The notes under the pieces were generated by a model. It saw only the letters and a program-made list of their open reading frames with translations. It had not been told where the DNA came from and made no database searches. A DNA stretch of 64,000 bases from the NCBI GenBank assembly GCA_044892525.1, contig CM097888.1, positions 4,154,001 to 4,218,000 on the forward strand, written 5' to 3'. This DNA is from Schmidtea polychroa (taxonomy: Eukaryota). Of this stretch, positions 62,596 through 63,770 are shown one piece after another; the stretch's first letter is position 1; every line of letters begins with the position of its first letter. The position numbers and the translations under genes are program-made.

Positions 62596-63770
62596 ATGGG
62601 AGAGTTGGGATATAAGAGTATGGTTGTTTTCAGCGACTTGACAAAATTTTTAAAGAAGAAAACGAAGAAAAACAAAGAATATCAAATGGAGAAAATCAGC
62701 AGACCAGCGAAACTATATTCACAGTATCTTAGAGAAAAGAGAAGCCGAATAGAGAAGACATATGTAATCGAAGAGAATCTGAGAATCCCAAATTGGGCAA
62801 GAACAGGCAATGAGAAAATGAGGATATGTCTAATGGAGATCGAATGGAGATCAAGAATGAAAATAGCCGAATTATTAGTGAGGAAAAATGATGAAAATTG
62901 GGAGATCCATGTATTTAAAGGAATAGTGGAAATCGTAAACAATGAAGGAACCATAACCGGAACAATGCCAAACAATTCATCATGGAAAATTGATAAAGAA
63001 ACATGGCATAAACGTATGCGAGCAGCGAATAGAACCGCGTGGTTAGTATTAGAATGCCGCAGTAAAACGCCCACAAGTAACGCGGTAGAAAGAATCATCT
63101 AAATAGAAGAAGAAAATACCTTGCTCCCGATTACTGAGGAAATGTTGAAACACCGAAAGTCATTCCTAAGAAAATATTTAAACACTGAAGAAATCCGAAA
63201 AAATATAATATTCATGGATGCCGAATATAAAGTAAGTGAGGACAATAGAATGATCCCACTAGCGGTATGCCTCATCGAATATACCGGGAAAATAATCTAC
63301 AATGCTTTGATAACTCCGAGAGAAAAAATAAAAAACTATGTTACACAGGTTCACGGCATTACTGAAAAAATGTCTAGGAACCAAGAAGACCAATATGAGA
63401 GCCAAAGGAAAATTCAGGAACTAACAGCACGAAAAATATTGGTAGGACATGATCTACAAAATGAATTAAGGTATAGCGGAGTCAACCCAAATGATTTATG
63501 GGGAATTCGGGATCTGGCAGCAGCCCAAGCTCTAACGAAAAGGAAAATCACAAAGAATGGGCAATGGTACAAATTGTCGATAATTGCTCAAGAAATATGC
63601 CAAATATCAATGCAAAAGGGAACGCACTCGGCGAGAGAAGATACGGATGCAGTGAGACGAGTTTATTTGGCGATTGGGAAGATGATATAAAAGTGCCAAC
63701 GCGGATATCTCACTCCCTACAAGAGTATAGAACTCGCCAACTAATGATGAATCAAAAAAGGGGAATATAG
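62596..63770 (+). pseudogene. Unknown N-terminal domain plus REX4/ISG20-like DEDDh 3'-5' exonuclease
   Basis: 62596-63102 and 63121-63690 share a frame across one TAA. ExoI IIFMDAEY, ExoII ILVGHDLQNE, ExoIII HSAREDT. Probable frameshifted C-terminus to 63770. Confidence 0.8.

Follow-up and report, generated by a model that had tools for sequence, protein, structure and literature searches.

An env-carrying Gypsy element of a planarian carries an ISG20/REX4-like DEDDh exonuclease gene

In the planarian Schmidtea polychroa, a 15.2-kb env-carrying Gypsy LTR element encloses a gene for an ISG20/REX4-like DEDDh exonuclease, ORF2, which sits between pol and the 3′ LTR. We found it in a window of 64,000 nt, meaning the whole stretch of DNA analysed (contig CM097888.1 of GCA_044892525.1, positions 4,154,001 to 4,218,000, forward strand). 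The window copy of ORF2 cannot make the protein. Whole sister copies encode a single ~475-aa protein composed of a cupin/2OG-like barrel, the DEDDh exonuclease and a variable tail; in these copies ORF2 is under purifying selection and, as judged from sequence, likely a working accessory enzyme. We tentatively favour a role as a separately expressed accessory 3′–5′ RNase that would blunt host RNA-based defence or surveillance.

The element and its exonuclease gene

The element is laid out as follows:
53125..53417, plus strand: 5′ LTR (TG...CA), with an internal deletion relative to the 3′ LTR
53736..55574, plus strand: gag, with Retrotrans_gag, CCHC knuckles and a weak ubiquitin-like match (Pfam)
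55935..56804, plus strand: Bcl-2-like region (E 2.5e-4, under the Pfam cut-off)
56720..58839, plus strand: env, fragmented, for a fusion glycoprotein of the Monjiviricetes/gB type; lies between gag and pol (E 2e-70)
58840..61529, plus strand: pol, broken, with protease, start of the reverse transcriptase (RT), and integrase with a C-terminal extension
61533..62408, plus strand: end of the polyprotein, an uncharacterised region with a terminal hydrophobic segment (no Pfam match)
62546..62580, no strand assigned: CCAAT-box motif (TGATTGG) upstream of the exonuclease gene, a candidate internal promoter
62686..63099, plus strand: ORF2 N-terminal domain, a predicted barrel, followed by a premature stop at 63100-63102
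63103..63680, plus strand: ORF2 linker and ISG20/REX4-like DEDDh exonuclease, DEEDh type
63681..64000, plus strand: ORF2 C-terminal tail, helical or low-confidence, with basic clusters, running on to ~64113
67385-68334, past the window end: 3′ LTR, with a polypurine tract directly before it

The two LTRs are identical at 250 of 253 aligned bases, and the element is flanked by a 4-bp target-site duplication, ATTA. An earlier sequence-only reading had the exonuclease carried by an element downstream of its integrase, and the position of ORF2 within paired LTRs with a target-site duplication bears this out: the gene is inside the element and not an ordinary host gene beside it. The same reading asked for confirmation that it is inside the 3′ LTR; the gene lies upstream of that repeat instead. 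Between integrase and ORF2 come ~1.5 kb of polyprotein, including a membrane segment, and then a short non-coding gap; the pol of this element lacks ~1.2 kb of RT/RNase H at ~60140. The gB-type env between gag and pol and the Bcl-2-like cargo, features of planarian GAG-ENV-POL errantivirus/Burro-like elements, are both present. No tRNA genes were found within the 64-kb window.

Other mobile sequences lie in the neighbourhood. Long inverted arms of 15-16-nt repeats flank ~1.3 kb in what resembles a non-autonomous element (42690-44290), and fragments of a DDE_3 transposase (47985-48386) and of a reverse transcriptase (50995-51330) follow. Past the window, at about 72000-85600, a block of ORFs resembles a Polinton/Maverick by eye (polymerase-, ATPase-, integrase- and protease-like).

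All three exonuclease motifs named in the sequence-only reading (ExoI D-x-E, ExoII GHDLQNE, ExoIII HSxxED) occur in one frame of the window copy and align with ISG20L2 and ISG20, catalytic residues included. Motif I reads D-A-E (D at 63217, E at 63223), motif II GHDLQNE (Glu at 63463) and motif III HSARED (H at 63625, D at 63640). The last is of the His type (H-x4-D), not the DEDDy Tyr type of rotifer ORF3. The Pfam RNase_T model scored 28.4 bits against a cut-off of 24. Searching the PDB with a natural sister copy returned ISG20L2 (E 2.6e-7) and ISG20 (E 3.3e-6), and a nine-sequence profile gave 8.7e-15 and 2.9e-11 for the same two proteins, with SDN1 and Pan2 next. The predicted structure of a natural copy (mean pLDDT 83.8; high for residues 1-340, low for the tail) contains an RNase H-like DnaQ fold in its nuclease part. 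This model matched ISG20 with Z 19.0 (rmsd 2.1 over 159 aa) and ISG20L2 with Z 17.8; DnaQ folds appeared further down the match list (Z 14.5). With ISG20, ISG20L2 and REX4 as the best sequence and structure matches, the proposed REX4/ISG20-like assignment stands. DEDDh enzymes cut 3′ to 5′ by two metals.

The Glu in motif II aligns opposite an Asp of ISG20L2 and ISG20. The substitution had been read correctly from the window copy; it is a trait of the family and not decay of this copy, being common to all five subfamily representatives and to many distant relatives.

Since its closest folds are ISG20 and ISG20L2, ORF2 might instead resemble its cellular relatives in acting on host rRNA precursors, snRNA or mRNA within the nucleus or nucleolus. 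The tail fits such a location, with basic KR clusters in five of five representatives and no membrane segment; however, these clusters are putative signals only, and a long branch separates the family from the cellular enzymes. We regard this option as quite unlikely.

The window copy is a pseudogene because a TAA at 63100-63102 divides its two domains, while its C-terminal part is disrupted by two frameshifts (near 63675 and near 63760) and by a second stop (63925-63927). The subfamilies share the ATG at 62686 as start codon, and the protein extends ~140 aa beyond the nuclease, to ~64113. The exonuclease had been described as following a ~170-aa domain in the same frame; the frame is indeed shared, but the domain measures ~135 aa from that ATG and the TAA cuts between the two.

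Modelled from the window sequence, the N-terminal domain forms a double-stranded beta-helix (pLDDT 89). Its best structural match reached Z 10.0 (rmsd 3.0 over 93 aa) and ALKBH6 Z 9.3. The matches comprised cupins, ALKBH6 and pirin, viral AlkB and cupins as well, and, lower, vaccinia C16 N-terminal domains (Z 7.9). Assignment to a single family was rejected, since Z values of 7-10 were reached alike by AlkB, pirin, cupin and poxvirus C16. Across 33 aligned rows, one His (H75) is conserved, with hydrophobic residues next to it, and no HxD/E...H metal triad was found; despite the agreement in fold, the domain is thus not a 2OG-Fe(II) oxygenase. Pfam gave no match over its cut-off and the ESM Atlas only unnamed matches at 0.87. 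As modelled, the domain would work at most like a binding barrel.

Relatives and origin of the family

A word search returned two full-length relatives and a profile search 49 proteins at E 1e-30 or better; none of the 20 that we looked up had a useful name. ORF2 defines a protein family without annotation, which comprises ~55 clusters (50% identity) and joins barrel and nuclease in a new architecture. Among 54 family rows, 20 were DEED, 16 DEDD, 10 altered and 8 incomplete, so that motif II held D or E in 36 of the 46 scorable relatives. Asp occupied this position in 76 of 78 other, non-family rows. In five metagenome loci, pol was directly upstream in two; the others were too short or had no recognisable pol. 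A viral contig scan gave 65 pattern matches, none of which was confirmed.

The 10 altered sites among the 46 suggest that catalysis is dispensable in some lineages, and they raise the option of a binding or decoy protein, whose nuclease fold and barrel would hold nucleic acid or a host sensor, with catalysis secondary. Altered and intact paralogues standing in tandem in one metagenome element and an altered copy of 591 aa that is still open point the same way, as does the weak likeness of the barrel to vaccinia C16. That match, however, falls in the generic cupin range, and the five catalytic residues are kept in this genome's family across subfamilies with as little as 35-57% identity, which makes a decoy distinctly improbable.

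The 591-aa member (L088:4409-6184; G000 C1:206.88 Mb) has an almost identical counterpart at a distance of 100 kb. Neither an upstream integrase nor a pair of flanking LTRs was found for it, and it is a candidate host-retained derivative. The metagenome element (L093:7268-10371) is of Gypsy type; its integrase is followed by ankyrin repeats and a second protease-like domain and then by the two tandem ORF2 paralogues, of which one is altered and the other has DEDD-type motifs.

The 23 family rows of a 47-row tree fell together on one side of a long branch (100/98); a 136-row tree was run in quick mode with 24 rows left out. The genome also has a host REXO4-like gene elsewhere, which bears an intron and groups with cellular REXO4. 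A genome search with Pfam RNase_T returned only a host ERI-1-like gene and element copies, while host REX4-like genes surfaced by protein query. Against this separation stands an AU test (p 0.133) that did not reject grouping the host gene with the family. The capture looks old and of REX4/ISG20 type, as far as the sequences tell; the location in an element was seen for part of the family.

Copies, cassette exchange and proposed function

We scored at least 150 copies among 1160 candidates in the genome. Six long loci all had the gene between pol and the 3′ repeat (five with LTR pairs 94.7-99.9% identical, one a tandem copy), and element length was 15-17 kb. Forty of the 150 copies were chosen by hand, with preference for matches without stops, and are related to one another, so that counts among them overstate independence. 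In this sample the N-terminal domain was upstream in 40/40, the membrane region in 38/40 and an integrase within 5 kb in 28/40; 27/40 had an open frame of at least 455 aa. The catalytic residues were retained at D (39/40) and E (39/40) of motif I, Glu of motif II (40/40), and H (39/40) and D (38/40) of motif III, with all five kept in 36/40.

ORF2 subfamilies are 35-84% identical. Between them, the exonuclease showed pN 0.13-0.35 against pS 0.72-0.83 (closest pair 0.01 against 0.10), ratios that are rough because synonymous sites are mostly saturated. The N-terminal domain and tail are likewise constrained, though less tightly than the nuclease. An ORF2 that is a neutral passenger or ordinary host gene is hardly credible and already largely refuted: ORF2 is intronless, lies within LTRs and has pN far below pS, whereas the host REXO4-like gene, with its intron, belongs with cellular REXO4. 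What speaks for a passenger is the broken window copy, the passively captured host fragment in other subfamilies of the element, and an AU test in which forcing the host REXO4-like gene together with the family was not rejected (p 0.133), leaving a recent or an old REXO4 origin.

That fragment is ~610 nt long, lies antisense between ORF2 and the 3′ LTR at L061:2481-3091 and at 13 other loci of the D/E subfamilies, and contains a 39-nt GT..AG intron. We take it to derive from a kelch-like (BTB-BACK) host gene, and it could be a source of small RNAs against that gene. The intron is missing from contigs of runs X1 and X2, suggesting that these runs contain spliced RNA.

From gag to the membrane region, two copies of the element share 96-99.6% identity (integrase pS 0.05); the value is 65-70% across ORF2 and 90-98% just after it, implying that ORF2 has been exchanged between lineages. 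The lineage switch between two copies starts within the membrane-anchored end of the polyprotein (61533-62408). Such cassette-like divergence is common in host-conflict genes, and neutral template switching could also produce it.

This exchange also bears on two other roles. ORF2 could be a replication-cycle processing enzyme that trims the 3′ ends of element RNA, primer tRNA or cDNA intermediates. Purifying selection is strong, and the gene consistently follows pol in this genome, as it does in 2 of 5 metagenome loci long enough to show pol. Against this, ORF2 is not in the polyprotein and is swapped independently of pol, altered-site versions persist, and most Gypsy elements replicate without such an exonuclease. 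We therefore find processing rather unlikely, even though the same idea was put forward for rotifer DEDDy ORF3 (PMC5408684).

Proofreading during reverse transcription is very improbable. It would be in keeping with a DEEDh signature like that of nidovirus ExoN and with the DnaQ folds lower among the fold matches, but the enzyme is ISG20-type, not DnaQ-type, and is encoded by a separate ORF. The idea of fidelity for an unusually long genome, also raised by the sequence-only reading, proved weak: the element is merely 15-17 kb, ORF2 is swapped without pol and 10/46 relatives are altered.

Expression of ORF2 may be driven by an internal promoter at the CCAAT box, which in the window copy is doubled into a 17-bp perfect inverted repeat. 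A reverse CCAAT box occurs 50-280 nt upstream of the start in 36/40 copies compared with 33/400 background windows, the motif having been found post hoc and the copies being related. It was missing upstream of four metagenome ORFs and of the 591-aa copy and thus appears specific to the family of this genome. Contigs of run X1, which we guess to be RNA (no run is on record as such), cover ORF2, a hint that suggests transcription. No splice joint into ORF2 was seen in seven alignments of run contigs plus one more, which is not evidence against splicing.

We return to counter-defence as the reading we favour. ORF2 would be a soluble RNase, expressed from the CCAAT-box promoter or from a subgenomic RNA, whose DEDDh site, with Glu in motif II, would work through two metals. 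The barrel may have a binding but no catalytic role, directing the nuclease to element-derived double-stranded or antisense RNA, small-RNA precursors or RT by-products. ISG20 is an antiviral RNA-trimming enzyme; ISG20-type enzymes prefer single-stranded RNA, and REXO4 and ISG20L2 act in rRNA maturation, which fits the rival roles equally well. The earlier reading suggested that the enzyme degrades dsRNA, small RNA or RT by-products, which is a plausible candidate role. We place counter-defence first because the gene behaves like a swappable accessory, the element carries other host-modulating cargo (Bcl-2-like) and the host silences Gypsy/Burro elements through PIWI (PMC8532177).

A fuller scenario, possible if doubtful, is that an old enveloped flatworm retroelement lineage turned an ISG20/REX4-type nuclease into a counter-defence enzyme, with a cupin-barrel-DEEDh fusion, an internal promoter, cassette swapping, active and dead paralogues, and perhaps retention of one or more dead derivatives by the host. 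With an ISG20-like gene that is abundant and selected, in an animal amenable to RNAi and strong in PIWI biology, it would become directly testable whether a retroelement counters RNA silencing with a nuclease of its own.

Comparison with known systems

DEDDy exonucleases in rotifer LTR elements are already published; capture of a DEDDh enzyme by an LTR element was not found in print. Our literature search yielded no description of a DEDDh/ISG20-like gene from LTR elements, planarian or otherwise, although annotation in Repbase or in planarian literature outside our search is possible. Retroelement-borne exonucleases are known only as the rotifer DEDDy ORFs, with predicted activity, and virus-borne DEDDh enzymes come from nidoviruses and arenaviruses. 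If the fuller scenario is true, ORF2 would give reverse-transcribing elements their first demonstrated DEDDh RNase, and DEDD-to-DEED shifts would have arisen convergently a third time, in addition to those of nidoviruses and rotifer elements.

ORF2 resembles human ISG20 (1wlj), ISG20L2 (7yw5) and cellular REXO4/REX4 in fold, in motifs I and III and in the GH-x4-acid form of motif II. It is 21% identical and differs from them by Glu in motif II, a clade of its own, the N-terminal barrel and its location in a mobile element.

The element itself follows the gag-Bcl2-env-pol order of planarian Burro/GYPSM1 Gypsy elements, in which env likewise stands after gag and before pol (PMC6431247), and its env segment closely resembles that of Smed_errantivirus_1/2, as judged by eye (PMC13524379). 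No exonuclease is named for either in the accessible portions of these sources, and the supplements of PMC13524379, to the extent available, do not mention ‘exonuclease’; the present element is compact at 15-17 kb.

Nidovirus nsp14 ExoN and arenavirus NP are likewise virus-borne DEDDh/DEEDh nucleases, and nsp14 also has Glu in motif II (PMC6693484, PMC7968707). PMC6693484 describes nsp14 as an active DEED enzyme and documents D/E alternation in motif II, so that the Glu of ORF2 is compatible with activity. Of the RNA viruses, a 2021 survey lists nidoviruses and arenaviruses alone as having domains of this kind (PMC7968707). The parallel drawn in the sequence-only reading holds as an analogy, but the fold matches are instead ISG20 and ISG20L2: nsp14 ExoN and NP belong to another subfamily and are missing from the fold matches listed, and ORF2 is not fused to a replicase or nucleocapsid.

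Similar in arrangement are the Juno/Vesta LTR elements and Terminons of bdelloid rotifers (Rodriguez et al. 2017, PMC5408684), where the exonuclease likewise has an ORF of its own (ORF3), placed behind pol of a Gypsy-like LTR element, with a DEDD-to-DEED change and predicted activity; the Juno/Vesta ORF3 is a DEED variant of the DEDDy type, and such exonucleases are described there as previously unreported in retrotransposons. Rotifer ORF3 is RNase D-like and DEDDy, whereas flatworm ORF2 is ISG20/REX4-like and DEDDh, which argues for an independent capture. Unlike rotifer ORF3, flatworm ORF2 is fused to a cupin-like barrel, travels in an element with env and is present in at least 150 copies.
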